This document shows, piece by piece, positions 951 through 56,200 of a stretch of DNA of 64,000 nucleotides. Origin of the DNA: a virus; IMG/VR virus record IMGVR_UViG_3300047510_000439. One strand, 5' to 3'. Both the position numbers and the translations under genes were made by a program. The notes beneath the pieces were generated by a model. The model saw only the letters and a program-made list of their open reading frames with translations. It searched no databases and was not told the DNA's origin. Every line of letters begins with the position of its first letter. Within the stretch, counting starts at the first letter, position 1.

Positions 951-3900
951 TTAACTTGATGCTAAGAAGTAGTTTAGGGCCAATGGTGAACCGTCTACTC
1001 CTTGTTTAAAATTCATTCTCTTGTTTATATTAATCGGACCACCACTAGTAGTAGTTATCTGATTTGTTGAAATTACAACATCTCCCGCTGTAACTGTATT
1101 TACATTTAATATGGCACCACCGCCACCAATTTGCGATTCAATGTAAGTTCTAATAGCTCTCTGAGTTGGAACAATACTATCGCTGTTGGCTGCAAATGTT
1201 CCGTCTGTTGAAAACTCGTTAACAGCAGTGTTTGAGCTTCCTAGTGTTACTGAACCTAACTGTAGTTCCTGTAGACCGCTTAGGTTAAAGGCATTAGCAT
1301 TTAGCGTTGATCTACCAGTTGACTGTTCAACTGAGAACAAATCACCTACTCTAAAGTTACCATCTTGGTCAGTGCTGGTAAAGAACACACGACCGCCGCC
1401 AAATTCTTTAGTTTCTTTAGTTTGATCTGGTGCTATTAAAGGTGTTCCAGGATAGTTTGTATTTGCAAAATTACCTGTACCAATATCTAAGAAGTCATGA
1501 CCTGTTAAGCGTACTTGGCTGTATCTAATTCTAATAGTAGCTGTAGTTAAATGTTCTGGTGCTAGAGCAATAGTAACTTCTGGGCTCAACTGTAATCTAG
1601 CTGTATAAGGTCCTGAACCTAACAGTTCAGTTACTGATACTAATTTGTATACAGATGAATTACCATCAAAGACTACGTTAGAGCCAGCAGTTGGTACAGA
1701 AGTTAGTCCTGACATGTTAACATAGAAACCGTTTTGGTATTGATCTCTATAACCTTCACCAGTCATAAACGCACCAGTAGCTGAATAGCCAACTCCGCCT
1801 GATACTATTGACGGACTGCCTAGCGCACCGTTTCCTGTTCTTACAGTATAAGTTGCTTCACTGGTATTCACAGGATCTGTTATTGTTATAGTTGGTACTG
1901 AAGCATATCCGCTGCCTGGTTCCCACAAATTAATTGCTGATATCTGTCCACTAGCAACTACTGCTCTGCCTTGAGTGCGTGTTATGTTTGGTATAGATAA
2001 TGCACTAGATGCTCCTGTAGCAATAATAGTCCATATTGGGTTGCTGCTTGGATTACCAAAACCAACAGTTGTCCACGTATCTGAACTTACTGCTCTTGAT
2101 GTCCATGTAATGCCGTCTGTGCTTGTTGCAATAGCAACTGATGTACCACCGCCATAGCCGGCTATAGCAATGAACGTTCCTTGACCGTAGTGTATTTCTT
2201 TCCATGTGCTGGACGCTGGCAGTGTTGCAGATACCCAGGTTATACCATCAAAGGAATAAGCTGCGTCTGCACTGCCTGTGGCTACTGCTACGAATCTTCC
2301 ATTGCCGTAGGTTACACTGGTCCAGTTAGCACTAGCTGGTAGTGTTGCTGCTAACCAAGTTGTGCCGTTAGTACTATAAGCAGCAGCAGTACTTGCTCCA
2401 CTTGCACCTGATATTGCAACAAACTTGTTTTTACCATAAGTTACACTGTTCCATGTAGTGCTTGAGGGCAATGCGCCGCCTGCTGTCCAACTAGTACCGT
2501 TAGTGCTGTATGCTGTATCAGTTCCGCCACTGGCTACTGCTACAAATCTGCTTCCGCCAAATGCAACACTAGTCCATGTAACTGATGCAGGAAGTGTTGC
2601 AGCAGTCCATGATGTACCACCGTTTGTAGAGTACGCTGCATTTGTGCCGCCGCTGGCTACAGCAACATGATAAGTTGTACTACTAATAACACCGCTATCA
2701 ACAGAGCTCCATGTAGCACTTGCTGGTAATGCGCCACCAGCAGTCCACGAAGTACCATTTGACGAATAAGCAGAATCTGTTCCGCCGCTGGCTACTGCTA
2801 CAAACTGGCCGCCTCCATATGCTACAGAAGTCCAATTAGACGGTGAAGGCATCGTTCTAGATGAAGCTGTATATGTTGGTGCTGTAAATTCAATTCTTGG
2901 TTCTATCTGATATACTGTAGTTAAATCTAATGTTGATTCAATAGTAGTACCAGGTACAACATGATCCCATCCAGCTGTTCCTGTTGATTCTTTGTAGATA
3001 GTAGCTACCTTAGTACCCGAATCGTATGCTTGTACGTAGCCGTATTGACCTACACCTTTACCGCTAGCAACGACTACTCTCATTCCTAAGTATTGTGTGC
3101 TAATACCTGTGTCAGCGCCTGACAATGTAATACTAGTTGTGTTACCTGTTTGAGCTATTCCTGATGGATAGCCGTAATCAGCGCCGGCAGTTAACATTCT
3201 TACTTCAAAGACAGCACCGTCTCTAATTTCATCTCCAACGACAGTCGCGCCAAAGCCATTACCAGTAAAGGTAAATGCATTATTTGAAGTTGTGTACTCG
3301 CTACCTGCATTCTTGTATTCAAGTCTTAGAATGCTGTTACCGTTAGTGAACACATTACCAATTTCTGCTTCATAAGCTCTGTTGTTTACTGTTCCGGTAA
3401 TAGGAGTTTCTGAAACATCAAAACCTTCTGCTACGCAACCAAACGAGCCATATGATGAGTTTCCGTTTGTTGCACGAATTTTTCCGCCGTGTTCTGCTAG
3501 GTAACCTATGTGTCCATAATAAGAGAACACAGAAACAAGTTCTGATCTGCCTAACTCTGTACACCATACGCCAATACCGTCACTTAGTACTTGTGTAAAG
3601 TCGTTAGCAACAATAGAATCATTACCACCGTTGTGCAAGCTGCCGTCTATTTTTAGACCAACGCAGGCTGTACCAAATGTAGTAACGTTCTGAACATATG
3701 GGGACTTGTTAATAATCCATGCCTTAGTATCGTTGGGACCCCAACCTGGATCTAAACTAACAAACGCACCTGCACTTGGTCTACGTGTTCCAAACGCATT
3801 TGGTGATCCTAGCGTACCTGTTAGACCTTGAACAGTACAGTTACGAAGACCTGTACCATTTCTCATGTAGAACATGTCTTCTTCTAAGCAACCATTAACT

Positions 3901-6425
3901 GCATTTACGTAATAACGAGCAGCTAACAGTGATTTGTAATTGCCTGTATAAATTAAATCGTATTTGATAGCATCTAAGTACCTATCAACGTCTCGTGCGC
4001 ACTTAGCTGAATCATATACATATGATGGATAGGTAACTGCAATATATGCTAAAATTTCAGCTTTAATAAATGCTCTGTTAGCTTCAATAGATTCAACAGC
4101 ATAGGTATAACCAGTTGATGTTTCAGGCGTATTACTACCTGCTGAAAGCGGAACAGTTGAGTCACCTGTTGCTCCGTTTACACCCCAATTAATGTAGTCC
4201 TGCATCTGTTGCACTAGTTCAGCTGCAACAGTTCCTGCACCTGCTGAACCAGCTGGTCTAGTTGTAACTTGTGTTTCAGTATTGCCTACCGAAGGAGTAA
4301 CAGCTATATTTTGTGATATGTTACCAATAATAGCTTCTAATCTTGCTAGTCCTGCTAGACTGTAAGGCGTGTCTGCTGAATCAACTAAACTTCCTGCTGG
4401 TAAAATTCGTGTGCTTCTTAGTTCGTCACCTACTACTGCGGTGTTCTCTGGAACAATGATCGGGGTAACTTCGTAGAATTCACCTGTTTTAACAAATATA
4501 GTATGTGTTGGCTTTCTTTCTACAACAATGTTTGCGAATAGTCCACTGTCTACAGGATCACTGATTACATCTAGAAGTGTTTCTAGTGCTGCTTGAGCGC
4601 CTGTTTCTTCAACCAGTGCTGTATTAATAACTTGTGTTATAGGACTTGGCACACTGTTTAGTGTTTGGTAATTAGCTGCTGGCGCAACATTTGATATAAC
4701 AGCATCAATCAATGTAGCCATATATCCCAATGCTGCTGCAAACTGATCAGCTTCGTCAGTCATTGCTGCAATAAGTGTGCCGCCACTAAAATAGCTTGCA
4801 ACCATACTTCTACTGCGAGCATTTCCGCCATGAGAGATATCCCATACCAGTGCATCTACTATTTTACCAAATTCTACTTCAGTAAGATATTCATTGTCAT
4901 TAACAAATCCTGACCAGATACCAGCGCCTCCGGTGATCTGATATGTTACCCAATTAAATATTTCTGCTTGGATAAAGCTTCTATTTTTTTCTAACGATGT
5001 TTTAACATTAGGATTTCTATGTCCTGCTTCAACTCTTTCCGCAGCATATCTTACTGTTTTAAAAGGTTTATCTAGAGTGTAACCGTAATCTAATTCATCT
5101 GTTCCGTTTGGTTCTACGTAGTAGACTCCGTCAATTTGACCCCATGTGTCCCATGATAAATTTCCTGCTGTAACTTTTAGTACTTGACCATCTGTTCCTA
5201 TAGGCAGTCTTGCAGGGCCTGAACCACTGTAGTAAACAATATCACCTTGTGTGGTCATTACAGTAGTTTCAACACCACCTGTTAATAGATTCCAATATGT
5301 TCCAAGTGTATCAACATCTGGTCTATTAGTAGCTGTTGCAGATGTGTGTGACAATACGCAGACATATGTAAAATTGTTATACTTTACTGAATCACCTAGC
5401 TCATAATCTGTAGCGTCTGCCCATGCGCTTCTCCACTTATAACCATAATTAAGTCTTTGCCAGTAGGTTGTAAGAGGTGGCTTGTTGCCTGATGAAGATG
5501 TATGATCTCCTGTGCATAGATAAGTGTAACCATTTAATCTAACAACATCACCTACCTTATAGTCTGTAGCTAGAGCAAAATCACCTATAAACTTAAATCC
5601 TGTTGAGAACAAATCCCAATTAGTTGAAGAAGATGTTGGTGTTTGATTAGAATGGTTTGTTTTTGCTACGTACTGATATCCGCCGTAAGTAACAACGTCA
5701 CCTGGCTGATAAACAGTAACTGAACTCCAACTATCTTCAAATTCTAAACCTTCTACAAATTGGCCCCACCTGCCGTTATCTTCATCAGTTTCAAAGGTTA
5801 CTGCAACGTTTGACGTGTGGTACAAGGTGCATATCCAAAGGCCGCCGCCGTACTTTACAACATCATTTTTCTTGTATCTTACTGTTGAATTACTCCAAGT
5901 TCCTTTATAATCAAAACTCTGGGTGACAATATCCCACTTAAGGATATCGTCTTCTAAACCCAACGTTGCTGTAGCAGCACTAGTGTGACTGTCGTTACAT
6001 CTATAAACAGTAGCACCGTAACGAACTACATCGCCTAATTTATAATAAGTTGCTGTAGACCAGTTACCTTTCCAATCAAACGAAGCTGTTGCAAAAGTTT
6101 CCCATTTGGATTGATCATCTTCAAGATAAGTTTGAGAAGTATGCCCTGTTGAACATATATAGACTAAACTACCCCATGTAACTAGATCGCCTAGCTTATA
6201 GTATGTGGATCCTGTCCAATTACCTTTGTATTCTTGGCCATCACTGGCTAAGTTCCATTTTGCTGCATCGAGGTCAATGTAAAAATCGCCTGCTGAAGTA
6301 TGTCCTTCGATACATATATACGTTTTTCCGCCATAACGAATTACGTCATCTCTATAGTAGGTAGTAGAAGAATTCCATAGGTTTTTCCAAACAAATCTAA
6401 TTCTACCTAATTTAAACTCAGCCAT
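951..6425 (-). CDS. giant fibre/receptor-binding-type structural protein (1824 aa)
   Basis: N-terminal tandem W..Y..GD.V.YGG..Y.C...HTS units (CBM5/12-like). YYVEPNGTD..PFKTVRYA...IFVKTGEFYE..IVPENTAVVGDELRSTRI is pectate-lyase-like beta-helix entry. Also seven ~43 aa propeller-like repeats, a GSGY Ig-like module, and a C-terminal STDQDGNFRVGDLF module shared with 6464-10444. Confidence 0.85.
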   Translation of the reverse strand: MAEFKLGRIRFVWKNLWNSSTTYYRDDVIRYGGKTYICIEGHTSAGDFYIDLDAAKWNLASDGQEYKGNWTGSTYYKLGDLVTWGSLVYICSTGHTSQTYLEDDQSKWETFATASFDWKGNWSTATYYKLGDVVRYGATVYRCNDSHTSAATATLGLEDDILKWDIVTQSFDYKGTWSNSTVRYKKNDVVKYGGGLWICTLYHTSNVAVTFETDEDNGRWGQFVEGLEFEDSWSSVTVYQPGDVVTYGGYQYVAKTNHSNQTPTSSSTNWDLFSTGFKFIGDFALATDYKVGDVVRLNGYTYLCTGDHTSSSGNKPPLTTYWQRLNYGYKWRSAWADATDYELGDSVKYNNFTYVCVLSHTSATATNRPDVDTLGTYWNLLTGGVETTVMTTQGDIVYYSGSGPARLPIGTDGQVLKVTAGNLSWDTWGQIDGVYYVEPNGTDELDYGYTLDKPFKTVRYAAERVEAGHRNPNVKTSLEKNRSFIQAEIFNWVTYQITGGAGIWSGFVNDNEYLTEVEFGKIVDALVWDISHGGNARSRSMVASYFSGGTLIAAMTDEADQFAAALGYMATLIDAVISNVAPAANYQTLNSVPSPITQVINTALVEETGAQAALETLLDVISDPVDSGLFANIVVERKPTHTIFVKTGEFYEVTPIIVPENTAVVGDELRSTRILPAGSLVDSADTPYSLAGLARLEAIIGNISQNIAVTPSVGNTETQVTTRPAGSAGAGTVAAELVQQMQDYINWGVNGATGDSTVPLSAGSNTPETSTGYTYAVESIEANRAFIKAEILAYIAVTYPSYVYDSAKCARDVDRYLDAIKYDLIYTGNYKSLLAARYYVNAVNGCLEEDMFYMRNGTGLRNCTVQGLTGTLGSPNAFGTRRPSAGAFVSLDPGWGPNDTKAWIINKSPYVQNVTTFGTACVGLKIDGSLHNGGNDSIVANDFTQVLSDGIGVWCTELGRSELVSVFSYYGHIGYLAEHGGKIRATNGNSSYGSFGCVAEGFDVSETPITGTVNNRAYEAEIGNVFTNGNSILRLEYKNAGSEYTTSNNAFTFTGNGFGATVVGDEIRDGAVFEVRMLTAGADYGYPSGIAQTGNTTSITLSGADTGISTQYLGMRVVVASGKGVGQYGYVQAYDSGTKVATIYKESTGTAGWDHVVPGTTIESTLDLTTVYQIEPRIEFTAPTYTASSRTMPSPSNWTSVAYGGGQFVAVASGGTDSAYSSNGTSWTAGGALPASATWSSVDSGVISSTTYHVAVASGGTNAAYSTNGGTSWTAATLPASVTWTSVAFGGSRFVAVASGGTDTAYSTNGTSWTAGGALPSSTTWNSVTYGKNKFVAISGASGASTAAAYSTNGTTWLAATLPASANWTSVTYGNGRFVAVATGSADAAYSFDGITWVSATLPASSTWKEIHYGQGTFIAIAGYGGGTSVAIATSTDGITWTSRAVSSDTWTTVGFGNPSSNPIWTIIATGASSALSIPNITRTQGRAVVASGQISAINLWEPGSGYASVPTITITDPVNTSEATYTVRTGNGALGSPSIVSGGVGYSATGAFMTGEGYRDQYQNGFYVNMSGLTSVPTAGSNVVFDGNSSVYKLVSVTELLGSGPYTARLQLSPEVTIALAPEHLTTATIRIRYSQVRLTGHDFLDIGTGNFANTNYPGTPLIAPDQTKETKEFGGGRVFFTSTDQDGNFRVGDLFSVEQSTGRSTLNANAFNLSGLQELQLGSVTLGSSNTAVNEFSTDGTFAANSDSIVPTQRAIRTYIESQIGGGGAILNVNTVTAGDVVISTNQITTTSGGPININKRMNFKQGVDGSPLALNYFLASS
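1990..2865 (-). repeat. seven tandem ~126-135 nt coding repeats (W.SV.YG.G.FVAVA.GGT..AYS.NGT.W.A..LP) inside the 1824 aa gene
   Basis: Protein-level repeats read from the track translation (NWTSVAYGGGQFVAVASGGTDSAYSSNGTSWTAGGALPASAT ... seven times). This fits a 7-bladed beta-propeller. Coordinates are approximate. Confidence 0.6.
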
Positions 6426-6463: not shown

Positions 6464-9400
6464 TTATCGCTTAAAGTAAGCAAGTGCTAGTAAACTACCT
6501 TCAACACCACCAGTAAAACGTGCTACTGCATCAAAATCTATACTCCCTGTTGCCGAAGTAATTTGATTGTTGTTAATAATTATCTGTCCAGCACGTAATT
6601 GGCTAACGTTGAGATCCTCACCACCACCACCAATTTGAGCAGCTATGTAAGTTTTTAAAGCTCTTTGCGTAGGCACAATATTGTTAGAATTTGCACCTAA
6701 CGTTGCATCAGTGCTGAATTCTCTAATTACAGCACCTGTTCCTCCCAGTACAACACCGCCTAATCTTAACTCAGTTAAACCTGTTAGGTCAAAAGCGTCA
6801 GCATTTAGTGTAATAATACCTGTGGCCTGTTCAACTTTAAACAATTCGCCTACACGGAAGTTACCGTCTTGGTCGGTTGAAGTATAGAATACTCGTCCGC
6901 CGCCTGCGTCATTTGTTTCTCTAAAAGCTTCAGGTTCATTTTGAGGAAGTCCTGGATAATTTGTTTCTACAAAATTACCTGTGCCAATATCTAAGAAGTC
7001 ATGACCTGTTAGTCGTACTTGACTATAGTTTTCTCTAACAGTAATTGCAGAAGAGTGTGCGGGTGATTCATACGTATCTATTCTAGGACTTACTCTAAGT
7101 TTAGCACTTTGATTTCCTAAACTACCGGTTATATCTTCTATAGTTACTAGTCTATAAACGGTAGAATTTCCATTAAATTGTACGTTAGCACCGGGTCCTG
7201 GTTGTCCAGTTAAACCAGTTACCCATATGTAACTTCCTGTTTGGAATGCATCTTGTAGACCAACACCAGTAACTGTTGCATTAGCCGTAACATATCCGGT
7301 TCCTCTATTAGAAAAAGTAGGCTGTGCTAGTACACCACTTCCTATTCTTGCTGTCCAAGTACCTGTAGAAGTAGCATTAGGATCAACTACAGTAATAGTA
7401 GGTTGATTCAAATATCCTGAACCGGGATTTATAATCCTAAAACTTCCTATTCTACCAGAAGCTATTGCTACTCTAGCTGTTGCTCTAGTACCAGTTCCTA
7501 CAGAAATAATAACTCTTGGTTCAATCTGATATCTGCTGGTGCTAGCTGGATCAACAATAGGTGTGCCGGATAACATGTGATCCCATCCAGATGTATCATC
7601 TGATTCTTTAGATATAGAAGCTATCTTAGTAAGAGGATCGTATGCAGATATATAACCATATTGTCCTACGCCTGCGCCTGATATAATAACTAACTTCATA
7701 CCAAGATAAACAGATTCTTCACTCTCATCACTATTCGCTAGAGTTATAGTACCTGATGAACCGCTGCCCCCTTGTGCATAGTTTTGTCTTATTAGATAAC
7801 CAGTGCCGCCCACAGTTCCCGAATCGTACGGGTCTGTTATTCTAATTTCATAAATTCCGTTTGTTACTACGTTTGCACTGCTAACTGCTGCGTTAAGACC
7901 TGCACCCGTAAATGTATAAGCTGCGGCAGAGTCGTAGTTAATACCAGCGTTAGTGTATTCTAAACTTAGTATTTGATCTCCATCTGTGAACACATAACCA
8001 ATTTGTGCTTCAAAATTTCTATTGTTTACACTACCAGTAATAGGAGTCTCTGTAGCATCAATTCCTTCTGCTATAGAACCGTAGTCTCCATAAGAATTAT
8101 TTCCGTTAGTAGCACGAATTTTTCCGCCAGCAGTTGCAAGATAGCCAACATGACAGTAGTAGGTAAACACAGAAACAAGTTCTGCTCTTCCTAGATCTGT
8201 AATCCAACAACCTATACCGTCACTTATGACTTGTGTAAAGTCGTTGGCAACTATAGAATCATTGCCGCCGGCATGTAGAGAGCCATCAACCTTTAACCCT
8301 ACGCATCCTGTACCAAATGTAGTAACGTTTTGAATATACGGAGATTTATTAGTAATCCATACTGTTGAGTCGCCTGTTCCTGTGCCAGGATCTAGCGAAA
8401 CAAATTTTACATCATTTAATGGTCGCTGAGTAAAATATTCGTTAGGTGATGACAATGTATCAAATAATCCCTGTAGAGTCATGTTTCTTATGCCTGTGGC
8501 ATTTCTAACATAAAACATGTCAGTACTTTCATATCCAGCTGCTGGTTGTACTATAGTACTTCTTAACTCGTCACCAACTAATGCTACACCTGCAGGTATA
8601 CTAATAGGTAACTCTTCTTCGTATACACCTGTTTTTATAAAAATAGTTGCAGGGCCTGTTATGTTTGCACAGGCATACTTAATTGTTCTCCACGGCTCGT
8701 TAAGAGTAGTTCCTCTTCCAGCTGCGTCAACACCGTCTGTTGCTACATAGTACACTTTTGAAACGTTGCCAAATAAATCCCAATCAAATGTAGTTCCGTT
8801 AGATACTTTAATTAATTCATTTTCGCTACCCTTTGGAAACCTATCCTTTGCTCCACTGTTATACCATAGAATATCACCCTGTGCTGCTAGAACGTTAGAT
8901 GAATGTCCTTCTACATATACATCCCAATATGTTCCCGAACCTGCTATGTCTGTGTCTGGGCGTGTAGGTGATGACCCTGTGTGTGCTAATTTACAAACAT
9001 AAGTAGTTGAACCGTATGTTGCTAAGTCGCCTAGTTTATAGGATATACCAGTTATCCATAGACCTCGCCATGCTTCGCTGGGAGAAACTATTTCCCAATA
9101 AGATAAGTTTGGTGGTTCTTCATTAGTGTTGTCTGCTACTGCAACATAAAGATAGCCTCTGTGTCTTACAACATTGCCAACTTCGTACGCTGGACCTACT
9201 GCCCAATCACCGTCAAACGTGTATCTTTCAGAGACTGGTTGCCAATATGCACTAGCAGTTACAGGATTTTGATTAGTGTTGTTTTGTTTTGCTCTATAAT
9301 TATAACCGCCGTACCAAACAACATCACCTTGTTGATAGTATGTAGAACTATCGTAAATACTTTCAAATTCTAAACCTTCAAGGTAAACTGTCCAGTTAGC

Positions 9401-10444
9401 TAGATTAGCAGCAAAACCTGTAGATGTATGTTCTGTATTTGCTACCCAAAGGGTAGAACCGTACTTAACTATGTCGCCAACTTTATAGCGTACAGCTTGT
9501 GCCCAGTCACCGATAAAATGTGTACCGTCATACACAGTGTCCCATTTTTCAATGTCAGCTTCTAATCCGCTTGACACTGTAGATGCACTGGTATGTCCTG
9601 TGTTGCATCTATAAACTATGCCACCGTATACTACTAGATCTCCTACTTTATATCTCGTACTAGTTAGCCAAACATTTTTCCAGTCTTCAGATTCAGTTAC
9701 TTCTCTCCAGAAACGTTGATTGACTTCTAATCCTAGTGAAGCTAATATTGTTGAGGTATGGATAGTTAAGCACTCGTATATTTTACCGCCATAACGTACT
9801 TTATCTCTTTCGTTGTAAAGTGTATTAAGTTGCCATGTGCCGCGCCAATGTGATCCTTCAAACATCAGCTCCCAAGTTGAACTTGTTGATGCAGCTATTG
9901 AGTTTCCGTAGCCTGTAGCAGCCTGTGACCAATAGTATAATGTGTTTGGAGTATCATCTTTAATTTCAATCCTAACCTCTCTAAGACCAGCAGAAGAAAA
10001 TCCTGAAACATATCCAGTAGCACTTACTTCAACATTGTCTAGATAATAAGTTACGTTTTTTGTATAGTTACTGCCGCCGCCGTAAAATCCATTGGCTGTA
10101 GATGAAAAGTATAAAGGATGTTGACTTGCTGAAAAAGAAACGTTAGATGCATCATTTTGATTAAAAATATAAGGTCTACCCTTTTTAAGTGTTAAGTCAG
10201 GTCTTTCAACACCATTAATAAAAAACACATCAGCTGTGTCTGCTGTATTTCTAGCAACAGTTACTACTAGATCTCTCGGTGTGCTACCAAAGTCAGTATA
10301 AAAAGCACTGCTCGAAGTATGCGAATCTAATGCTACATAGGCTTTGCCTGCATAATACACTACATCGTCTTTGGTATAGTCTGTAGCAGGTGCCCAGTTA
10401 CCTGTCCATCTAAATTTAAGTCTATCTATTTTAAAATTAGCCAT
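6464..10444 (-). CDS. giant fibre/receptor-binding-type structural protein (1326 aa), paralog of 951-6425
   Basis: The same N-terminus (MANFKIDRLKFRW..W...DY..DDVV.Y.GK.Y), the same HTS repeats, and a beta-helix region (VYYVATDGVDAAGRGTTLNEPWRTIKYA...IFIKTGVYEE). The C-terminal RLTGHDFLDIGTGNF...STDQDGNFRVGELF module is also shared, and blocks of near-identical DNA occur in both genes. Confidence 0.85.
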   Translation of the reverse strand: MANFKIDRLKFRWTGNWAPATDYTKDDVVYYAGKAYVALDSHTSSSAFYTDFGSTPRDLVVTVARNTADTADVFFINGVERPDLTLKKGRPYIFNQNDASNVSFSASQHPLYFSSTANGFYGGGSNYTKNVTYYLDNVEVSATGYVSGFSSAGLREVRIEIKDDTPNTLYYWSQAATGYGNSIAASTSSTWELMFEGSHWRGTWQLNTLYNERDKVRYGGKIYECLTIHTSTILASLGLEVNQRFWREVTESEDWKNVWLTSTRYKVGDLVVYGGIVYRCNTGHTSASTVSSGLEADIEKWDTVYDGTHFIGDWAQAVRYKVGDIVKYGSTLWVANTEHTSTGFAANLANWTVYLEGLEFESIYDSSTYYQQGDVVWYGGYNYRAKQNNTNQNPVTASAYWQPVSERYTFDGDWAVGPAYEVGNVVRHRGYLYVAVADNTNEEPPNLSYWEIVSPSEAWRGLWITGISYKLGDLATYGSTTYVCKLAHTGSSPTRPDTDIAGSGTYWDVYVEGHSSNVLAAQGDILWYNSGAKDRFPKGSENELIKVSNGTTFDWDLFGNVSKVYYVATDGVDAAGRGTTLNEPWRTIKYACANITGPATIFIKTGVYEEELPISIPAGVALVGDELRSTIVQPAAGYESTDMFYVRNATGIRNMTLQGLFDTLSSPNEYFTQRPLNDVKFVSLDPGTGTGDSTVWITNKSPYIQNVTTFGTGCVGLKVDGSLHAGGNDSIVANDFTQVISDGIGCWITDLGRAELVSVFTYYCHVGYLATAGGKIRATNGNNSYGDYGSIAEGIDATETPITGSVNNRNFEAQIGYVFTDGDQILSLEYTNAGINYDSAAAYTFTGAGLNAAVSSANVVTNGIYEIRITDPYDSGTVGGTGYLIRQNYAQGGSGSSGTITLANSDESEESVYLGMKLVIISGAGVGQYGYISAYDPLTKIASISKESDDTSGWDHMLSGTPIVDPASTSRYQIEPRVIISVGTGTRATARVAIASGRIGSFRIINPGSGYLNQPTITVVDPNATSTGTWTARIGSGVLAQPTFSNRGTGYVTANATVTGVGLQDAFQTGSYIWVTGLTGQPGPGANVQFNGNSTVYRLVTIEDITGSLGNQSAKLRVSPRIDTYESPAHSSAITVRENYSQVRLTGHDFLDIGTGNFVETNYPGLPQNEPEAFRETNDAGGGRVFYTSTDQDGNFRVGELFKVEQATGIITLNADAFDLTGLTELRLGGVVLGGTGAVIREFSTDATLGANSNNIVPTQRALKTYIAAQIGGGGEDLNVSQLRAGQIIINNNQITSATGSIDFDAVARFTGGVEGSLLALAYFKR

Positions 10445-19537: not shown

Positions 19538-19981
19538 TTAGATAGCTGTTAATCGCATTACAGTTTCTGTCGAGTCGTTCTCAATAGTCCACTTGTATCT
19601 TGCGTTGTTGAAATCTCTACAAGTACGATTGAATAGTTTCTTAATACGAACCTGTGTACCACCAGTACCAACAATAGTACCTTGTATTGACATTTCATTA
19701 GCTGCTAAAGAACCAACAGCTTTGTCAACTAGTGTGCAAATTCCTACGTTACCTGTACCAGAACCGCTTGGTGTTACCTTAGTACCTGCTTTAGTATCGT
19801 TTACTAAAAACTTGTTTGAACTACGCTGTCTTAAAATGTAGCCTTCGTCGCTAGCAGAGTTGCTGGCAACTTTTACGTTTACTGTGATGTTAAAAAAAGT
19901 TTCGTTTGATGCTGGTGCATAACGTGTATCGTCAGCGTCTGCTAACCAACCAAAGAATTTCTTATTTACTGGACGTCCCAT
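19538..19981 (-). CDS. hypothetical protein (147 aa), apparently monocistronic
   Basis: It has its own GATAAATA motif and SD (AAGGAG), with a hairpin after the stop. No family recognised. Confidence 0.7.
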   Translation of the reverse strand: MGRPVNKKFFGWLADADDTRYAPASNETFFNITVNVKVASNSASDEGYILRQRSSNKFLVNDTKAGTKVTPSGSGTGNVGICTLVDKAVGSLAANEMSIQGTIVGTGGTQVRIKKLFNRTCRDFNNARYKWTIENDSTETVMRLTAI

Positions 19982-20048
19982 TTGTTTTCTCCTTTATGTT
20001 GACGTTCTAGGTCTACGCAGTGGGTAACTGCATAAGTCTTAGACAAAG

Positions 20049-20056
20049 TATTTATC
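20049..20056 (-). promoter_or_regulatory. late-promoter-like motif GATAAATA(CTTTG)
   Basis: Minus strand reads tatGATAAATACTTTGtc, directly after the pqqA-like terminator and 67 nt upstream of the 147 aa gene. Confidence 0.45.
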
Positions 20057-20065
20057 ATAAAAGAT

Positions 20066-20090
20066 AAAAGCCCAACAATGTTGGGCTTTT
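20066..20090 (-). terminator. intrinsic terminator after the PqqA-like ORF
   Basis: AAAAGCCCAA-CATTG-TTGGGCTTTT (minus strand) is followed by ATCTTTTAT. The 10 bp stem has flanking A and T runs, so it could act in both directions. Confidence 0.7.
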
Positions 20091-20105: not shown

Positions 20106-20177
20106 TTATCTGTTAGCAATATACATTGTAACTTCAAAACCATAGCGCATTTCTGTTGCTACTGGTTTGGTCCACAT
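20106..20177 (-). CDS. pqqA: PqqA-like peptide (23 aa), pyrroloquinoline-quinone precursor family
   Basis: Hand translation gives ATG(20177) [26 protein letters not shown](20108-20106). AAGGAGG sits 8 nt upstream. Bacterial PqqA peptides are 23-24 aa, e.g. [23 protein letters not shown] as I recall it, with a conserved E-x-x-x-Y (here E15 and Y19). It is below the ORF-track length cut-off. Confidence 0.8.
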
Positions 20178-20202
20178 AATGTTTTCCTCCTTTGCACTAT
20201 TA

Positions 20203-20208
20203 ATTATA
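20203..20208 (-). promoter_or_regulatory. TATAAT -10-like hexamer upstream of the PqqA-like ORF
   Basis: Minus strand reads ctgtgTATAATtaatagtgcAAAGGAGGaaaacattATG. No convincing -35 was seen. Confidence 0.3.
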
Positions 20209-20263
20209 CACAGTTATAGTAGGAAAAACATACGTAAAATCATTAAAATATCATCAGTCAAAG

Positions 20264-20287
20264 AAATAGGGCCTTTCGGCCCTATTT
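20264..20287 (-). terminator. intrinsic terminator after the major capsid gene
   Basis: AAATAGGGCC-GAAA-GGCCCTATTT (minus strand) is followed by CTTTGA, 25 nt after the MCP stop. Confidence 0.7.
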
Positions 20288-20312
20288 CAATTTGCTTACC
20301 TAACAGGTAGTA

Positions 20313-21488
20313 TTATCTGAAGCTTACGCTTGAAGAAGTAATACCAACAGTTGCTAGGTAGTCTGCTGCGTTACCAAGTGACGAAGCTGTGTTGGTTAGC
20401 TCAACATAACCATAACGTGTCATAAAGCTGACAGTTGGTTCGAATGTTGATGGATCTAGTACAACACCGCTGCTCATCAATGGAATGTATGGGCAGTAGA
20501 ATGCTGGAGCATCAGATTCTGAAGTTCCCTTGTAACCAATGATAACGTTAGCATTGTCAGCAGCATAAGTGTTGACATATACCTTCATTGCATTGTTTAG
20601 AGTACCAACTAGCTTTGTGTTAGTTGGAGCTTCAAACGTACCTTCTGTAGTACGTGCAAATGCTGATGTTGTTGCGCTCTGTAGAATTGTTAGTGCAAAT
20701 GGTGAAACTACAGCGTAGTTACCAGCACCACGACGTGTACGCTGAGCGATTAGGTTTGCTGCACGGTTGATTTGAACAGCTAGTGCAGCATGCTCGTCAC
20801 CAACAAATGTAGCAGTACCGCTAACAGCAGTCTGGTCGTATGTTTCTACAGCAGCACCAGCTAGAGTGTTTAGCGAAGCTAACACTTCCTGGTCGATTTC
20901 AGCTGTAATTTCTTGAGCAAGAGCAGCCATAATTTCTGCTTCTACGTCGATGCCATGCATAGACTGTGCGTCTTGTGCAGCTTCGAAAGTCCAACGTGCG
21001 CTGAGCTTACGAGTCTTGGCTTCAACTGTTTGCTTCAAGATTTGAATGCTTAGTCTGTTACCAGCAACACCTTCTAGCGCAGCAGTTGCGTCTGCCTTAG
21101 CTGTTGAAGTATTGCCTGAATAGGCTTCAGCAATCTTAAATGGGCTTAGAGCTTCTTCACCTGCAACTGCACCTGAAGCGCCTGAGCCTGCTGTGTCCGC
21201 ATAGCGAACACGTAGAGTGTGGATTTGACCCACGGGTCCTGTCATTGGCTGAACACCAACTAACTCGTTAGCAATAACGGTTGGCATCACACGACGGATG
21301 ACTGGTAGGATAACACGGTTTAGTGTTGCGACATTACCGGCAGAAGTAGCACCAGCAGTAGCACTTTCTGCAAGATACCTACGGGTATTTTCCAGTGTAG
21401 TGGCCATTACTGACTTTTTGTTGCCTTGAAGGCCTTCAAGAAGTGCTGCTTTTGTATCCTGCCAGCGACTTTCTAGTAGTTCTGACAT
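20313..21488 (-). CDS. gp23: major capsid protein, T4 gp23 family (391 aa)
   Basis: ILPVIRRVMPTVIANELVGVQPMTGPVGQIHTLR matches the gp23-family N-terminal signature. It sits directly after the protease and scaffold genes and is followed by a strong terminator. Confidence 0.85.
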   Translation of the reverse strand: MSELLESRWQDTKAALLEGLQGNKKSVMATTLENTRRYLAESATAGATSAGNVATLNRVILPVIRRVMPTVIANELVGVQPMTGPVGQIHTLRVRYADTAGSGASGAVAGEEALSPFKIAEAYSGNTSTAKADATAALEGVAGNRLSIQILKQTVEAKTRKLSARWTFEAAQDAQSMHGIDVEAEIMAALAQEITAEIDQEVLASLNTLAGAAVETYDQTAVSGTATFVGDEHAALAVQINRAANLIAQRTRRGAGNYAVVSPFALTILQSATTSAFARTTEGTFEAPTNTKLVGTLNNAMKVYVNTYAADNANVIIGYKGTSESDAPAFYCPYIPLMSSGVVLDPSTFEPTVSFMTRYGYVELTNTASSLGNAADYLATVGITSSSVSFR

Positions 21489-49700: not shown

Positions 49701-50216
49701 TTATTTAGAAGTTACGGTGCTGAAATTAATAAAATTAAGTCTATAAGTGATGAAGTTGTTTACCATCCTGTAAAATATAAGTCTCTCTTTGGTAGCAAAG
49801 CAAGATCAGATCTACAGGTTACATTTAAGATAGTAAAAAATCCTGCTCTAACAGTAAACAACAATGAAATAAAAGCTAAGGTAATTGATTCAATTAATCG
49901 ATTCTTTAGTATAGAATACTGGAATTTTGGTGATACTTTCTATTTCTCAGAGCTAAGTGCTTATGTAATGAATGGCTTATCACCAGAACTAGTATCATTC
50001 TTAATGGTACCAAAGCAGTCAGATCAAGGCTTTGGAAGCCTTTTTGAAGTTAAATCAGAAAGCGATGAAATTTTTATCTCGGCAGCAACAGTTTCCGATA
50101 TAGAAATTATCGACGAAATAACAGCAACAAATCTTAAAGCTCTAGGCAATGTAGTTACAAGTGTATCATCAAGCAAGAGCGGAATACAAAGTTCGTCAAG
50201 TAGAGGTTCATATTAA
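46782..50216 (+). CDS. gp6: baseplate wedge protein, gp6/Baseplate-J-like (1144 aa)
   Basis: N-terminal FQSYDFDNLRRTMINYLRQNYPEDFNDYIESSEYLALIDLIAFLGQNLSFRIDLNARENFLETAERRESVLRLARLISY fits the baseplate-J/gp6 pattern. Its position after the gp25-like gene matches T4 order. Confidence 0.6.
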   Translation: MSSTDRQSRLLATEDWKTIYQSFRNADFQSYDFDNLRRTMINYLRQNYPEDFNDYIESSEYLALIDLIAFLGQNLSFRIDLNARENFLETAERRESVLRLARLISYNATRNQAANGLLKFETVKTTESVFDSTGLNLAGIVVRWNDRGNSNYFEQFIKILNAALPVNGTYGRPIKSDNIAGVLTQQYRFNAANIDIPVYPFTRNIEGTSTRFEIVSSDILNGSIVEEPPLPANNPAFLYRDDGQGASSSNTGFFMHFRQGRLDSGPFTINNPTPNQIVAIDSVNINNTDVWLYSTDSNGIETELWTKLEAIEGNNIIYNSLFRGIRNAYAVQTRIEDRINLIFSDGVFGNLPSGNFKIYYRTSENRNSIINPGALTNVSIDIPYISKNNTQETLTVSLNLKYSISNGAASESNEEIKSNAPATYYTQNRLITAEDYNVGPLGISQDIIKTKSVNRIASGISRYYDLKDASGKYSNTSLFADDGILYKEEFLRKTAFTFATQSDIEGVIYNLIEPILASANTNNFYLAKYGKIIVSDLGVDWSQITKSTNRCTGVFVDADLARQKVGTFTANSLRLVEAGSMLKFTAPDGYHFMPDGTLMQGDADHLGSTSYKWAKVISVYGNGTQIDSSGSGSIVLNDIIPEGAVLNQIIPKLSRVLIDDIKSQIIDRVFAYRDFALRYDQEARQWKIITAENINTVNPWSTGKAGDSSGQNLDSSWILNFKTNGQSYTVTYRNLRYVFESAGEIRFFFDSADKIYDPKTGQLVKDKISVLNINRKPDSLVPFTKDYIWTISDAFRDTEGYVDSRKIQVEFFDNDDDGVVDDPDLFEQIVAEAINPSSKFVFQKKYMTTDGVEDFKYFNNSSGTIMVKNNEAAIGSPSSYNDGQVFYLIEEGLFKVLNITNNNTTVTVDYKAFVGRNDLKFHYVHVADSNYRIDPSSTNIIDTYLLTKGYDTEYRKYLSSDTAVQPLPPSSDELFRSYGAEINKIKSISDEVVYHPVKYKSLFGSKARSDLQVTFKIVKNPALTVNNNEIKAKVIDSINRFFSIEYWNFGDTFYFSELSAYVMNGLSPELVSFLMVPKQSDQGFGSLFEVKSESDEIFISAATVSDIEIIDEITATNLKALGNVVTSVSSSKSGIQSSSSRGSY

Positions 50217-50218
50217 TA

Positions 50219-53200
50219 ATGTCTAATCATACTCAAAATGAAAATGCTTTGCCTGTACCAGGCAACAACAGTAGAGCTGTTTCGGATCTGCTACCTAGAT
50301 ATTTTAGAACTGAAGCAAATAAAAAGTTTTTACAATCAACATTAGACCAACTAGTACAACCTGGTGTAGCAGAAAAAATTAGTGGATTTTTTGGAAGAAA
50401 AAATTCTAAAGCATATGCTGCTGGAGACAATTACATTGGTGATGTTTCTAAAGCAAGAGAAAATTACCAGTTAGAACCTGCACTGGTTATAAAAGATAAT
50501 CTAGACAATGTAACTTTCTACAAAGATTATAACGACTATGTAAATCAGTTAAAGATTTTTGGTGCTAACACAACTAATCACAGTAGACTTAATAGTCAGG
50601 AAACTTATGCTTGGAACCCAAATATAGATTGGGATAAGTTTGTTAATTTTAGAGAATATTATTGGATACCAACTGGACCTAAAACAGTAAGAGTTACAGG
50701 TCAGGCCAAAGAAGTAATCAGTACCTATACAGTACGTCTTACTGATAATGGTGATAATGTTTCTTATCTATTTTCTCCCGACGGTTTTACGTCAAACCCA
50801 AGCCTTAAGCTATACAGAGGACAGACTTATAGATTTGACATAGATTGTGTTGGTCATCCTATGGCTATAGCAATCAGTAGAACATTTACTCCTGGTAACG
50901 CTGTAGTTGTTGCAGGTCGAGAAGGTGTTAGAGGCGAAGGGCTCTTTGACGCAAAATTATACGGCAACGATTACGATCTTGGCGATTATATCATTCTACC
51001 AGACAGCGGTTCAGTAACCTTTGACGCCGATGAAAATGTTTCTACACTTTATCCAGATGGTATTCGTAAGTTAGGAGAAGCTGGAGAAGAAATTGCAAAC
51101 GTGTATATAGAAAAGGGAATTATTGAATTTACTATTCCCATTAATGCTCCTGACAAATTATATTACATATCTAAGAATGATGTTGATGTTAGTGGTTTAA
51201 TAAAAATTTATGACATTGAAGAAAATACTTTCTTAGATGTTGAAACAGAAATATTAGGCAAGAAAACCTACAAGAGTGCTAACGGTATTGAATTTACTAA
51301 CGGTCTTAAAGTTGAATTTTTAGGTACAGTAGTGCCTAAAATATACAGCGAAGGTAATTGGTATGTTGAAGGAGTAGGAGATAAAATTAGATTAATTGAA
51401 GAAAAAGATTTAATTATTCCAGCTTCATATACTGCTAATATAAATGTTCCTTTTGACAGTGAGGGGTTTGATACTCTTCCCTTTAGTGATTCATCTTCTT
51501 ATGCAAAAGAAAAAGATTATATTGTAATTAACAGATCTAGTAGAGATAGAAATCCTTGGAGCAGATATAATAAATGGATACACAAGGACGTATTAATTAA
51601 AACTGCAGAATACAACAAGATACCATTTGATATAGATGAAAATCTAAGAGCTAAACGTCCTATTATTGAATTTGAAGCAGGCTTAAAACTCTATAATTAC
51701 GGATCATTTGCAAAACTAGACGTTGATTTAGTAGATGCTTTCACGCTTGATGTTTTTTCAACAATTGAAGGTAGTCTAGGATATAACATTGACGGTATTG
51801 ATGTAGCTGACGGAATGAGAATTTTATTCACAGCAGATCGAGACAAGTTAGTAAACGGAAAAATTTATCAAGTAAAATTTGTAACTATAGGTAATAACAG
51901 ACAAATAAGCCTTATTGAAGTTTCTGACTCTGAACCTCTTGATTTAGAAACTGTGTTTGTTATCAACGGTAATAATTATGGCGGCAAAACATTTCATTAT
52001 CACGGCGATAGATGGATGTTAGCGCAAGAAAAAACAAAGAGAAATCAACCGCCGTTATTTGAATTAGTTGATGCAGAAGGAAATAATCAAAGTAATTCAA
52101 ATATTTTTAATGCTACTACATTTAAAGGTAGTAAGATCTTTAGTTATAAGATTGGCAATGGAGCCAATGATATAGAATTAGGATTTCCTTTAAGCTATAA
52201 AAATATTGAAAACAGCGGTGATATTGAATTTGAATTTAATCTTCTTACAGATACGTTTACCTATCAAACCGAAACAGATATTATTTCAGTATCAACGTCA
52301 ACTAGCTGTTTAAAAAAGTTTACTGATAGAACAAATTTTGATTATGTTAACGGTTGGTCAAAGACACCAACTGTTTCAAAGCAAAAGGTAATTAGACAAT
52401 ACGTTTCTACCCAAGCAGAAAATAATAATTTTCAAATTGATGTTTATAACAAGGCTGCTTTTATTACAGATCTTCGAGTAAACGTTTTTGTTAATAATAA
52501 GTTAAAGAAACAAGAACTAGATTATACACTTGATAGAATAAATGAAAAAGTATTTGTTAGATTTTTTAATGATTTAGAAGAAAATTCTAATGTTATTTTA
52601 AAGACTGATTCTACTACACCTAAGAACGATAATGGTTGGTATGATTTTCCTATCAATCTAGAAAGAAATCCGCTTAACGAAGATATATCGACATTTACGT
52701 TAGGTGAAGTTATTGATCATGTTGATAGCATGATTGAAGATATTTACGAGTTTACTGGCACTTATCCTGGACCTAGTAACTTAAGAGATCTTGGAGAACT
52801 AGATGTTTACGGTAAACGGTTTGTAAAACACAGTAGTCCGTTAAATCTTGCTTTATATCATATTACTAACAAGAAGTACAACATAGTTAAAGCTATGGAC
52901 TACAGCAGAAAAGAGTATGCAAGATTTAAAAGAATCTTTATTGAAACTGCTTCTACTTTAGGATATGACGGTGAAATAAAACAACACGTTGATTTAATTC
53001 TTAAAGAAATTAACCGAGATAAGGTTAAGTCACAACCGTTCTATTTTTCAGATATGATAAATTGGGGGAACGATAACAAGGTTATAGAGTACGAAGTCCT
53101 TGATCCTCGCAATCCGTTTTACCCACTATCAGAAGTATTTGATATAACAGTACCAAGCCAGCGAGCAGTTAATGTATACCTAAACGGATATCAGTTAGTA

Positions 53201-56200
53201 CACAATAAAGACTATACATTTAACAATGAAGGGTTCTTAGTACTTGATAGTTATCAACAAGAAGGTGACATTCTTAGAATATACGAAACTTCGTCTACTG
53301 ACGGATCATTTATTCCGCCAACACCTACTAAATTAGGTTTATATCCTTCTTATGTACCACAACTTATTATAGATGATACCTATCTATCAGAAGAACCTGT
53401 TATTAACGGACCATTTAAAATTTATGGTGAAGATGAGACTACTTCAAAAATAGGTTGGTTTTATCCTGTATACACAAGTCGTCGAGCTGCTCAAAACGCA
53501 GACTCAAATAATGCAGCAAAACAACTAGTTCTAGCAGGTTATAACAGAGTACTGTATATTCCTACTAATACAGGTATTGAAGCCGGAACTGATAATGTTG
53601 AACTTGATGAGTATCCTGTAGGAACTGCTGTAATACGAGGACACGACGGTAGTTTTGTTAAGGCATTTAAGGATTATAGAGATACCCTTATAATAGATCT
53701 TGAAAAACGAATATTCAATAATATTAAAGTTTTTTATAATCCACTAGAAACTGAGCTTCTTTACGGTGAAGGAACGCTAAGTCTGTTTGATTTTGTACCC
53801 GGCAAATTTAGAAAAACTGAATTTACTAGAAACGAAATAAACGAATCTTTACGAGGATCTTTCGTAGAGTGGCTAAGCCTAGTTGAGACTGATTACACTA
53901 GTAATTATTTTTACGAAAGAGAAAATCAATTTACATTTAACTACAGTACCATGACTAACGTAGTTGATGGAACTAGTCTACCTGGATTTTGGAGAGGCGT
54001 TTACAAAGAACAATTTGATACTGATCGTCCTCACAGTCACCCATGGGAAATTTTAGGATTTACTATTAAACCAAAGTGGTGGAACGAAGTTTATGGACCT
54101 GCTCCTTATACTGGTAACAACGGTGTTATGTGGGGTGATATTGAGAAAGGCATTATAAGAGAGCCTGGAAAACAGGTTAGGGTTTTAGAAAAGTTTGCTA
54201 GACCGGGACTCACTTCATTCATACCAGTTGACAGCAAAGGTAGATTGCTATCTCCTATTGCTGCTAATATTGCAAAAAATTTCGTATACAGAAATACTAC
54301 ACAGAGTTTTGAATTTGGTGATGAAGCTCCTGTTGAAACCGCTTGGAGAAGAAGTTCAGAGTATCCGTTTGCTATTCTTAGAGCATGGGTTTTAAATCAG
54401 CCATCAAAAGCTATGGGCGTAGGATTTGATACCTCTAGACTTGATAAGAACTTAGTAGGACAGTATGTTTATAAAGATACTAAAAAGCATTTAACATTAG
54501 CAGATCTTCAGTTACCAAATACTTATGAAGACGCTTCAAGAATTCAAACATCGGGATTAATAAATTTCATTTATAATCTTGTAGCAAGTAATATCTTAAC
54601 AGTTTATAATGACTATAAAACAGACCTAGTATCTATTAGAAATCAATTAGGATTAAAACTAGGCGGTTTTACAGATAAGCAAAAGTTAAAAATTGTACTA
54701 GATAGTAGAAGTCCTAAAGCTAGTGAATCAGAAGGTGTATTTGTTCCTGAAGAGAACTACCAAGTATTTTTAAACACAAGTTCACCTGTTGAAACGATTG
54801 TATACAGTGGTGTAATTGTTGAAAAAGCACCTGACGGATTTATTATTCGCGGCTACAATAACGAAATTCCTTATTTTAAATATTTTCAAACTCAGTCAAC
54901 ACAGAATGATGTTACTGTAGTAGTTGGCGGTATAACTGAAAGTGCAAGCGAATGGGCAGCTAATAGACGTTATGTTAAAGGTCAGCTGTTAATCAATTCT
55001 TTCAAATACTATAGAGTAACAGATAATTTTACTTCAGGACCAAGTTTTACAACAAATAATCTTGCTCTGTTATCTGACATTCCTATAGTAGGTGGTAAAA
55101 GAGCACAATTTAAGAAAAATTTCTTAAAATCAAGTAACAAAATTCTAACCTACGGTACTAAGTTGTCAACGTCGCAAGATGTTGTAGATTTTATATTAGG
55201 TTATGATGCATATTTAAAATATCAAGGTTTTACATTTGATTATTTTAATCGCGAAACAAACTTTGTTGAAAATTGGGACAATGCAGCTAGAGAATTTTTA
55301 TTCTGGACTACACAAGGATGGGCGTCAGGAACAACTATATCGTTAAGTCCGGGTGCAACATCTCTAAATTTATCAACAGCTTACTCTGTTGCTGATGATA
55401 TTCTTGATGTATTCTACAGCTACGGTGTAGTAAAGCAGGATGGCGATGCTTTAGATAGAAAGTTTATTTCTATATATAGAAATAAAAATGTGTTTGAAGT
55501 AAGACCTAAAAACACTAATGATGGCATATACGGTGTTTCTATTCCTGTAGTTCAGAAGGAACATGTACTATTAATAGATAATACCACAGTGTTCAATGAT
55601 ATAATCTATCAACCATCTACTGGTTATAGACAGGAAAGATTAAAAGTTACAGGTTATCGATCAGATAACTGGACTGGCGGCCTAGATATTCCTGGATTTA
55701 TATTTGACGATGCAACAATAACAGACTGGGAACCTTGGCAAGATTATAGCGTAGGATCTCTTGTAAAGTTTAAGCAATTTTATTATGTTGCAATATATCA
55801 AATTACTGGATCAGAAGAGTTTAATAGTAATTTTTGGTATAGACTCAATGAAAAACCTGTACCAAAATTATATACAAACTTTGATTATAAGATAAATCAA
55901 TTTTCTGATTTTTATGATTTAGATTCTGATAACTTTGATGCTGAACAGCAAAGATTAGCTCAACATCTAATAGGTTATCAGAAGAGAGAATATCTTGCTA
56001 ATATCATTAACGATGACATCAGCCAGTATAAGTTCTATCAAGGATTCATACAAGACAAAGGAACAAAAAATGCAATAACAAAATTGTTTGATCCTTTAAG
56101 TGGTTCTGATAGAGATAGTTTTGATTTCTACGAAGAATGGGCTATACAAGTAGGTCGTTACGGTGCTGTTGACAATGTTCAACAGGTTGAATACACTCTT

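Follow-up and report, generated by a model that had tools for sequence, protein, structure and literature searches.

The window analyzed here is a 64-kb stretch (64,000 nucleotides; IMG/VR record IMGVR_UViG_3300047510_000439) of an uncultured jumbo phage with a genome of ~374 kb, and the element under study is a short open reading frame (ORF) that lies between the major capsid protein gene and the next conserved phage gene. The ORF reads ATG TGG ACC ... AGA TAA on the minus strand, 23 codons and a stop, and encodes PqqA, the precursor peptide of the cofactor pyrroloquinoline quinone (PQQ). An earlier note on this DNA, made from the letters alone, had proposed both the translation and its reading as PqqA. 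The translation was an exact match, and the mechanical ORF list of the window includes the same interval as a 23-amino-acid ATG ORF.

20106-20177, minus strand: pqqA ORF, with cross-link residues Glu15 and Tyr19; both curated PqqA models passed

The profile hidden Markov model (HMM) comparison suggested in that note was performed, and the ORF scored above the cutoff of both curated PqqA models over their full length: 32 bits against Pfam PF08042 (cutoff, 21.1; model positions 1 to 19 of 19) and 35 bits against the NCBIfam equivalog TIGR02107 (cutoff, 20; model positions 1 to 21 of 21). A control HMM was also made from 26 distinct cellular PqqA 23-mers and was used to score all 904 window ORFs of 15 to 60 amino acids. 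The pqqA ORF scored 65.8 bits (E = 8e-20) and the runner-up scored 4.5 bits, a result that puts the match far beyond chance and makes it the only one among the 904 small ORFs. The reading as a PqqA precursor was thus supported by the two curated models and by the window-wide control.

The phage peptide is 23 residues long, carries the core Glu15-Val-Thr-Met-Tyr19, and begins with the same M-W-T-K-P leader as the cellular copies. Its length and Glu-x3-Tyr spacing were shared by 123/123 viral and 123/123 cellular copies. Six contigs of this phage, taken from different assemblies, carried the ORF without a single difference, and gene callers had missed it in all of them. A PDB sequence search returned no solved structure with a similar peptide, and an exact-sequence look-up in a collection of ~15 billion proteins did not return the phage peptide. 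We conclude that the ORF is a genuine, translatable pqqA, its membership in the PqqA family being confirmed at the level of sequence.

Conservation and gene content of viral pqqA loci

A degenerate DNA pattern encoding W-T-K-P-x3-E-M-R-[FY]-G-F-E-V-T-M-Y was searched in IMG/VR and matched at least 120 contigs; in all, the IMG/VR contigs with an intact pqqA numbered at least 136 and represented several phage lineages. Because such a pattern predetermines the residues that it specifies, constraint was judged from features outside the pattern and from a scan with the N-terminal part only. Among the matches listed, the stop codon fell exactly four codons past the core in 120/120 viral copies, and an ATG stood directly before the Trp codon in 111 of the 120 and one codon further upstream in 6. 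The N-terminal-only pattern M-W-T-K-P-x3-E-M-R gave 123 IMG/VR matches with enough flank, every one of which went on with G-F-E-[VI]-T-[ML]-Y and stopped after four more residues; none of the 123 had lost the Glu or the Tyr of the cross-link. Three jumbo-phage copies differed nonsynonymously only at residues 6, 7, 12, 20, 21, and 23, positions that are also variable in cells, and carried 4 to 5 synonymous differences within invariant codons. Moreover, no virus-specific substitution was found in viral PqqA: the variable positions were those of the cellular copies, and some viral peptides were identical to cellular ones, as with WTKPAATEMRFGFEVTMYVMNK, which occurred in 22 viral and 41 cellular loci. 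We conclude from these comparisons that the viral copies are intact and under selective constraint.

The genes surrounding viral pqqA indicated that it is carried by unrelated phage lineages, with RecE/Sak modules, with a primase-helicase, with T4-type RegA and clamp loader, or on jumbo phage genomes. Neighbors included a RecE-like exonuclease (36 loci), a replication initiator (20 loci), Sak (18 loci), a primase-helicase (17 loci), RegA (16 loci), a head protein (15 loci), a clamp loader (12 loci), and endolysins. A second jumbo-sized carrier was IMGVR_UViG_3300023174_000036, a 356,312-bp contig that encodes MWTKPTAQEMRFGFEITMYVMNR at 671-740 on the minus strand (locus L329; 1.2 kb seen).

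PqqA ORFs were also present in 12 records of the GenBank phage collection, 9 of which are cultured methylophage records. Seven of these ORFs lie as follows.

Melnitz, MZ577097.1 (L001): 3001-3069
MW202481.1 (L002): 2119-2190
Venkman, MT375522.1: 9977-10045
P19250A, KX815270.1: 28085-28153
MEP301, MW452941.1: 3316-3384
MEP401, OP830906.1: 41902-41970
MEP402, OP830907.1: 43050-43118

In the methylophage records, the gene is either unannotated or covered by an opposite-strand "hypothetical protein," which is probably spurious, and pqqA goes unmentioned in the papers on these phages. A search for methylophage records lacking pqqA, made by way of the Melnitz baseplate protein, matched only Melnitz. 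HIM624-A, MEP431-434, MG-MTP1, and RSA-MFP1 gave no pqqA match or lie outside the collection, and we therefore claim no universality among methylophages. More distant PqqA-like ORFs, with 64 to 78% identity, were seen in records named "Acinetobacter phage MD-2021a" (CAKLQF020000010.1, 108210-108275, and CAKLQH020000055.1, 419-484). Phage-borne pqqA may, on the resemblance of these ORFs, extend beyond the phages of methylotrophs.

The enzymes that act on PqqA were sought with PqqB, PqqC, PqqD, and PqqE queries from the canonical operon of Methylovorus sp. MM2 (L245), which were verified with Pfam. No match to any of the four was detected by tblastn in the 64-kb window, in the loci of the same phage, in 80 relatives selected by their capsid gene, or in 136 other viral pqqA loci, and the same search recovered PqqB from 27 cellular loci. 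The large window ORFs, scanned with Pfam, also contained no pqqB, pqqC, pqqD, or pqqE, such that the absence of these genes from the window, claimed earlier, was confirmed in two ways. Scans of IMG/VR with PqqC and PqqE returned no relatives, single-sequence queries of this kind reaching close relatives only. We conclude that the viral pqqA loci, within the stretches scanned, have precursor-only content.

The pqqA cassette and the slot that holds it

The ORF is accompanied by the following signals, two of which are conserved in homologous cassettes on two contigs of related phages, L077 and L045.

20186-20193, minus strand: Shine-Dalgarno sequence AAAGGAGG, 8 nt 5′ of the ATG
20198-20212, minus strand: upstream block 2, TGTGTATAATTAATA, conserved in the cassettes of L077 and L045; unique within the window
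20236-20247, minus strand: upstream block 1, TTTAATGATTTT, ~60 nt 5′ of the ATG, common to the L077 and L045 cassettes
20066-20090, minus strand: intrinsic terminator of the pqqA cassette, 11-bp stem and U-run; −15.1 kcal/mol, z = −4.0
20263-20288, minus strand: hairpin/terminator closing the major capsid transcript, the upstream boundary of the cassette; −20.6 kcal/mol, z = −6.7

The earlier note had described a self-contained unit consisting of a strong Shine-Dalgarno sequence, a TATAAT-like box, a terminator below the gene, and a capsid gene terminator above it. The Shine-Dalgarno sequence was present, the box proved to be a perfect TATAAT at 20208-20203, and the downstream terminator was found with its U-run. 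The element above the gene folded as a strong hairpin, which the terminator scan flagged on the plus strand only because the minus-strand U-tract is short. The note was thus right about these features at the sequence level. Equivalent hairpins were found 3′ of the capsid gene in L045 and L077. A Shine-Dalgarno-like motif also preceded 118/120 viral copies, among the matches listed, and 121/123 cellular copies.

Block 2 contains the perfect TATAAT and also TATAATTA, which is one mismatch from a T4-late-type box, and we infer that it is a candidate promoter −10 element. Block 1 partly recurred at the pqqA loci of Melnitz and other viruses and was not enriched elsewhere in the window. The possibility that the upstream blocks represent a general promoter class of this phage was rejected, as both were unique to the cassette within the window. 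The cassettes of the window, L077, and L045 are homologous outside the ORF as well and share the TTTAATGATT.. and TGTGT.TAA.TAATA blocks and the Shine-Dalgarno sequence. The inverted orientation in L045 implies a promoter within the unit itself, which supports the claim of self-containment. We conclude that these signals support a small autonomous pqqA cassette, a putative "moron" or auxiliary metabolic gene (AMG), within the structural module.

In front of the operon-leading genes that start at 6425, 17639, 19981, 30312, 30391, 32317, and 46782, boxes of the form (G/A/T)ATAAATA were observed at a distance of 21 to 67 nt from the start codon. These T4-late-like boxes suggest that the phage has a class of late promoters of the gp55 type.

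The cassette is bounded by phage genes on both sides, and the same arrangement was found in six independent contigs of the same phage. The capsid, prohead protease, and portal genes lie upstream, and a conserved phage gene, fiber proteins, and baseplate genes lie downstream. The nearest neighbors are as follows.

20313-21488, minus strand: major capsid protein, T4 gp23 type, the upstream neighbor; phrog_138, E = 5e-100, and PF07068 (Gp23)
19979-20057, minus strand: freshwater-2 RNA motif, 5′ leader of the 147-amino-acid gene, bounding the cassette on the downstream side; RF02980, 55.7 bits (gathering threshold, 49.9)
19538-19981, minus strand: conserved 147-amino-acid gene, the downstream neighbor, whose homologues follow the capsid gene in relatives

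The capsid protein is 65 to 70% identical in amino acid sequence to those of the cultured jumbo phages Phosso (469 kb), PA5oct, CBB, GAP32, and Vibrio 2.275.O, and an identical capsid protein, from the same phage, was encoded by 10 or more metagenome contigs. The longest of them (JGI 3300043427, Ga0451747_0000002) measures 373,603 bp, and its interval from about 205.8 to 269.8 kb corresponds to the window. The 147-amino-acid gene had no Pfam or PHROG match, and no record of the phage collection matched when 24 kb of the window was compared by megablast.

The interval after the capsid gene was surveyed in 80 IMG/VR loci with 82 to 93% capsid identity, 62 of which had 450 nt or more of sequence downstream. 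The conserved 147-amino-acid gene followed the capsid stop codon after 142 to 1767 nt among relatives and after 331 nt in the window phage. A PqqA ORF occupied the slot in 3 of the 62 relatives, on the same strand in L077 and inverted, convergent with the capsid gene, in L045 and L046. In other relatives, the slot held unrelated ORFs, glutamine riboswitches, and manA RNA motifs. We conclude that the slot is a hotspot of small regulatory RNAs and morons.

Individual slot contents were also noted. Glutamine riboswitch aptamers (RF01739) or manA motifs (RF01745) lay at 4234-4281 in L077, 4234-4281 in L010, 3972-4021 and 4256-4465 in L036, and 4613-4818 in L061. The freshwater-2 motif occupied the same position in at least seven relatives (L010, 4702-4784; L049, 5390-5471; L030, 5387-5471; L036, 4540-4623; L013, 4556-4639; L064, 4235-4312; L012, 4160-4235), and a hairpin carried compensatory changes between the window and L045. 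The motif appears to be a leader of the phage structural module. In L045, a GC-rich, structured-looking segment of ~250 nt (4420-4670) separates the inverted pqqA cassette from the gene after it and has a promoter-like element 5′ and a terminator; it gave no Rfam match at the gathering threshold and may be an uncatalogued noncoding RNA or a sub-threshold manA-like RNA. The slot of L061 contains an ORF of 356 amino acids at ~4765-5835 that is Cys rich and resembles a radical-SAM/SPASM protein by eye, with no tblastn similarity to PqqE.

Elsewhere, the window encodes giant fiber-like proteins with CBM_5_12 repeats, SbcCD-like proteins, a SegE homing endonuclease, and a baseplate hub. The two fiber-like proteins, of 1824 and 1326 amino acids (951-6425 and 6464-10444, both on the minus strand), contain multiple CBM_5_12 carbohydrate-binding repeats and are possibly receptor-binding proteins. 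The SegE-type GIY-YIG homing endonuclease gene (32841-33281, minus strand; PF19835, 120 bits) sits amid structural and recombination genes. At the 3′ end, a plus-strand ORF of at least 4,599 codons (50204-64000) leaves the window and has a GC content of ~0.33 to 0.35, lower than the rest.

Probable host and known counterparts

The DNA pattern used for viruses was also applied to cellular genomes, one per species, and matched at least 120 loci. Among the matches listed, 79/120 belonged to Methylophilus, Methylotenera, Methylobacillus, Methylovorus, “Ca. Methylopumilus,” Novimethylophilus, or otherwise to Methylophilaceae or Methylophilales, and the others were mostly unresolved metagenome-assembled genomes of Burkholderiales or Betaproteobacteria, with ~9 named to other families. 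We conclude that the PqqA subtype is, by its distribution among these matches, overwhelmingly characteristic of Methylophilaceae. The earlier hint at a PQQ-producing proteobacterial host was supported and could be narrowed to this family, the most likely host being a freshwater Methylophilaceae-type methylotroph. The adjacent freshwater-2 RNA motif is consistent with an origin in fresh water.

Most of the collected cellular copies were orphans with no pqqB following. Methylophilaceae have 3 to 12 pqqA copies per genome and one pqqBCDEFG set, and linkage to pqqBCDE is not obligatory in the donor family because most of its copies are orphans. The best cellular match to the phage peptide agreed at 19/22 residues. 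At the nucleotide level, the best match was 60/72 among viral copies and 59/72 among cellular copies, with a cellular average of ~76%, a cellular maximum of 82%, and unrelated flanks. A recent donor was sought by nucleotide identity and none was identified (maximum, 60/72 nt; flanks unrelated). Such low best identities and unrelated flanks mean that neither a recent donor nor a host genus can be named.

The closest counterparts are the orphan pqqA genes of Methylophilus, Methylotenera, Methylovorus, “Ca. Methylopumilus,” and OM43. Like the phage copy, they encode 23 residues with the motif M-W-T-K-P-x3-E-M-R-[FY]-G-F-E-V-T-M-Y, vary at the same positions, and stand alone with a strong Shine-Dalgarno sequence and no adjacent pqqB. 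The phage copy differs in lying within a phage structural module, in having upstream blocks common only to other phage cassettes, and in encoding a peptide that had no exact match in any sampled cellular genome. Operon-linked PqqA, as in Methylovorus sp. MM2 (L245), Klebsiella, Pseudomonas, and Methylorubrum, belongs to the same HMM family and has the same Glu-x3-Tyr motif but is encoded with pqqB-E in cis, whereas the phage copy has no pqqB-E in the window. The endings ...VCNR and ...IANR are commoner in the operon copies of Methylophilaceae; the phage copy has IANR.

The cultured methylophages (P19250A, Venkman, four Melnitz records, MEP301, MEP401, and MEP402) encode peptides of 23 to 24 residues that are 74 to 82% identical to the phage copy and have the same core. 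Their hosts are OM43 or LD28 Methylophilaceae. They are unrelated in type to the window phage, with genomes of ~35 to 44 kb or T4-like genomes of 141 kb, and their pqqA genes occupy other positions, that of Melnitz lying among tRNA genes before the baseplate hub.

Cyanophage psbA, an AMG that sustains energy supply, likewise replenishes a rapidly consumed part of the host's main energy system. PqqA differs from it in being a consumable 23-residue precursor of a ribosomally synthesized and posttranslationally modified peptide (RiPP) and not an enzyme or structural subunit.

Viral PqqA as a kind is already known. The Lake Baikal viral population VP_266, a Methylophilaceae virus, encodes PqqA, which was read as an AMG boosting methanol oxidation, and it additionally carries a methanol dehydrogenase gene (Coutinho et al. 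2020, PMC7678222). Viral PqqA was also listed in 2026 among viral P-cycling AMGs of reservoir sediments (PMC13188868). These are annotation-level mentions from viromes, whereas the present copy belongs to a jumbo phage of ~374 kb whose 64 kb seen here contain no other methylotrophy gene. It is apparently the first PqqA in a jumbo phage. What is new is the anatomy of the cassette, the evidence of constraint, the precursor-only content, the breadth of lineages, and the overlooked gene in cultured methylophages.

Proposed precursor supply and competing explanations

The route from PqqA to PQQ starts with binding of the peptide by PqqD. The radical-SAM enzyme PqqE then cross-links its Glu and Tyr, the product is trimmed, PqqB hydroxylates it, and PqqC oxidizes it, at a cost of one peptide per molecule of PQQ (Barr 2016, Koehn 2019, and Zhu & Klinman 2020). 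In methylotrophs with multiple copies, the rate of PQQ synthesis follows the pqqA transcript level, and cell extracts turn purified PqqA into PQQ. We think it rather probable that pqqA in this jumbo phage is an AMG cassette that feeds the consumed precursor to host PqqBCDE, the phage likely infecting a freshwater Methylophilaceae-type methylotroph. In the infected cell, the phage would produce the 23-residue precursor, and the host's single PqqD/PqqE set would form the Glu15-Tyr19 cross-link, after which a protease, PqqB, and PqqC would complete PQQ. Host precursor would normally come from several highly regulated pqqA copies. Since the peptide is consumed one per PQQ and the host copies are so regulated, the phage copy would maintain or raise supply during the takeover of host transcription. 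The PQQ-dependent methanol dehydrogenase (XoxF/MxaF) would thereby be sustained and would provide energy for a large burst.

Several points weigh against this proposal. Expression of the gene, processing of the peptide by host enzymes, and a fitness benefit are steps that it presumes. PQQ is stable and tightly bound, and a need for new PQQ within one infection cycle is not obvious. The promoter scan made no minus-strand sigma-70-type promoter call for pqqA, and the pqqA box TATAATTA differs by one mismatch from the NATAAATA boxes before other operons. The presence of pqqA in only 3/62 capsid relatives means that it is dispensable for the phage clade. The host was read solely from the peptide subtype. 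The scans covered 64 kb of a genome of ~374 kb and left ~310 kb outside, such that precursor-only content is unproven for this phage, and the 2026 survey (PMC13188868) lists viral pqqD and pqqE.

The strongest competitor is that pqqA is a neutral passenger, either recently captured host DNA or a selfish minicassette spread by recombination, from which the phage gains nothing. The patchy occurrence among capsid relatives is what such a passenger would leave, as is the hypervariable slot, which also gathers riboswitches and unrelated ORFs, and the cassette occurs in both orientations. All viral copies examined were, however, intact in start codon, Shine-Dalgarno sequence, and exact length. Moreover, synonymous divergence was found with no near-identical cellular donor (maximum, 59/72 nt), and several unrelated lineages, as well as nine cultured methylophage records, have gained or kept the gene. 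We regard the passenger explanation as improbable.

Still less credence is given to the phage peptide being a decoy that binds host PqqD/PqqE, either unproductively or by outcompeting host PqqA, and thereby lowers or redirects PQQ synthesis, as in redox manipulation or phage exclusion. Binding to PqqD and PqqE is plausible on the retained W-T-K-P leader and core, and no PQQ enzymes are carried alongside. A decoy would be expected to lose its reactive residues, whereas the Glu and Tyr were kept in all 123 viral copies, no virus-specific substitution was present, the varying positions were those of cells, and peptides such as WTKPAATEMRFGFEVTMYVMNK were identical in viral and cellular loci. Moreover, less cofactor for an energy-yielding enzyme would harm phage production.

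Equally unlikely in our view is a role other than PQQ supply, in which the peptide or its cross-linked intermediate would act as a signal or regulator, the transcript would act as a regulatory RNA, or extra PQQ would serve lanthanide/metal handling or export and not methanol dehydrogenase. Conserved noncoding blocks do travel with the ORF, and cis-regulatory RNAs occupy the same slot in relatives. The conservation is nevertheless of the coding type, with synonymous changes in invariant codons and a fixed frame length, and no Rfam family covers the ORF. To our knowledge, no such role has been described for PqqA.

The possibility that pqqA is an attP-like site, or homology to the many host copies for integration or recombination, was rejected as very improbable: hosts do have 3 to 12 dispersed copies, and many small pqqA-bearing viral contigs encode RecE-like exonuclease, Sak, or Erf, but all copies are full-length genes with a Shine-Dalgarno sequence and not 3′ fragments, nucleotide identity to cellular copies averages ~76% and does not exceed 82%, the window showed no integrase, and we know of no integration step for a jumbo T4-type lytic phage. 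We conclude that these explanations are less likely than precursor supply, given the intact copies, the lack of virus-specific substitutions, the identity of some viral and cellular peptides, and the retention in several lineages.

A wider proposal, on which we are evenly divided, is that PqqA is a lineage-spanning hallmark AMG of methylotroph phages, possibly the smallest AMG and one that is a consumable RiPP precursor. At least four unrelated lineages, from ~35 kb to ~374 kb, would have taken and kept PqqA because the precursor limits PQQ, and so methanol-driven energy, during infection. The gene would have been missed because gene callers skip 23-codon ORFs, and it might serve as a host marker for methylophages. 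Host-phage pairs bearing pqqA exist in culture (OM43 strain H5P1 with Venkman or Melnitz, and LD28 strain IMCC19250 with P19250A), and thus, the precursor-supply hypothesis is directly testable.

A common phage gene has escaped standard annotation, as it is unannotated in the cultured methylophages and the window peptide is not in a catalogue of 15 billion proteins. pqqA offers a simple sequence marker that would link uncultured phages, jumbo phages included, to methylotrophic hosts. If the phage peptide is processed to PQQ, methylotroph phages would reprogram the cofactor supply of the first enzyme of methanol oxidation, with a consumable substrate of 23 residues as their contribution instead of an enzyme. 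Such reprogramming would matter for how carbon moves through the methylotrophs that abound in fresh and coastal waters (“Ca. Methylopumilus,” LD28, and OM43).

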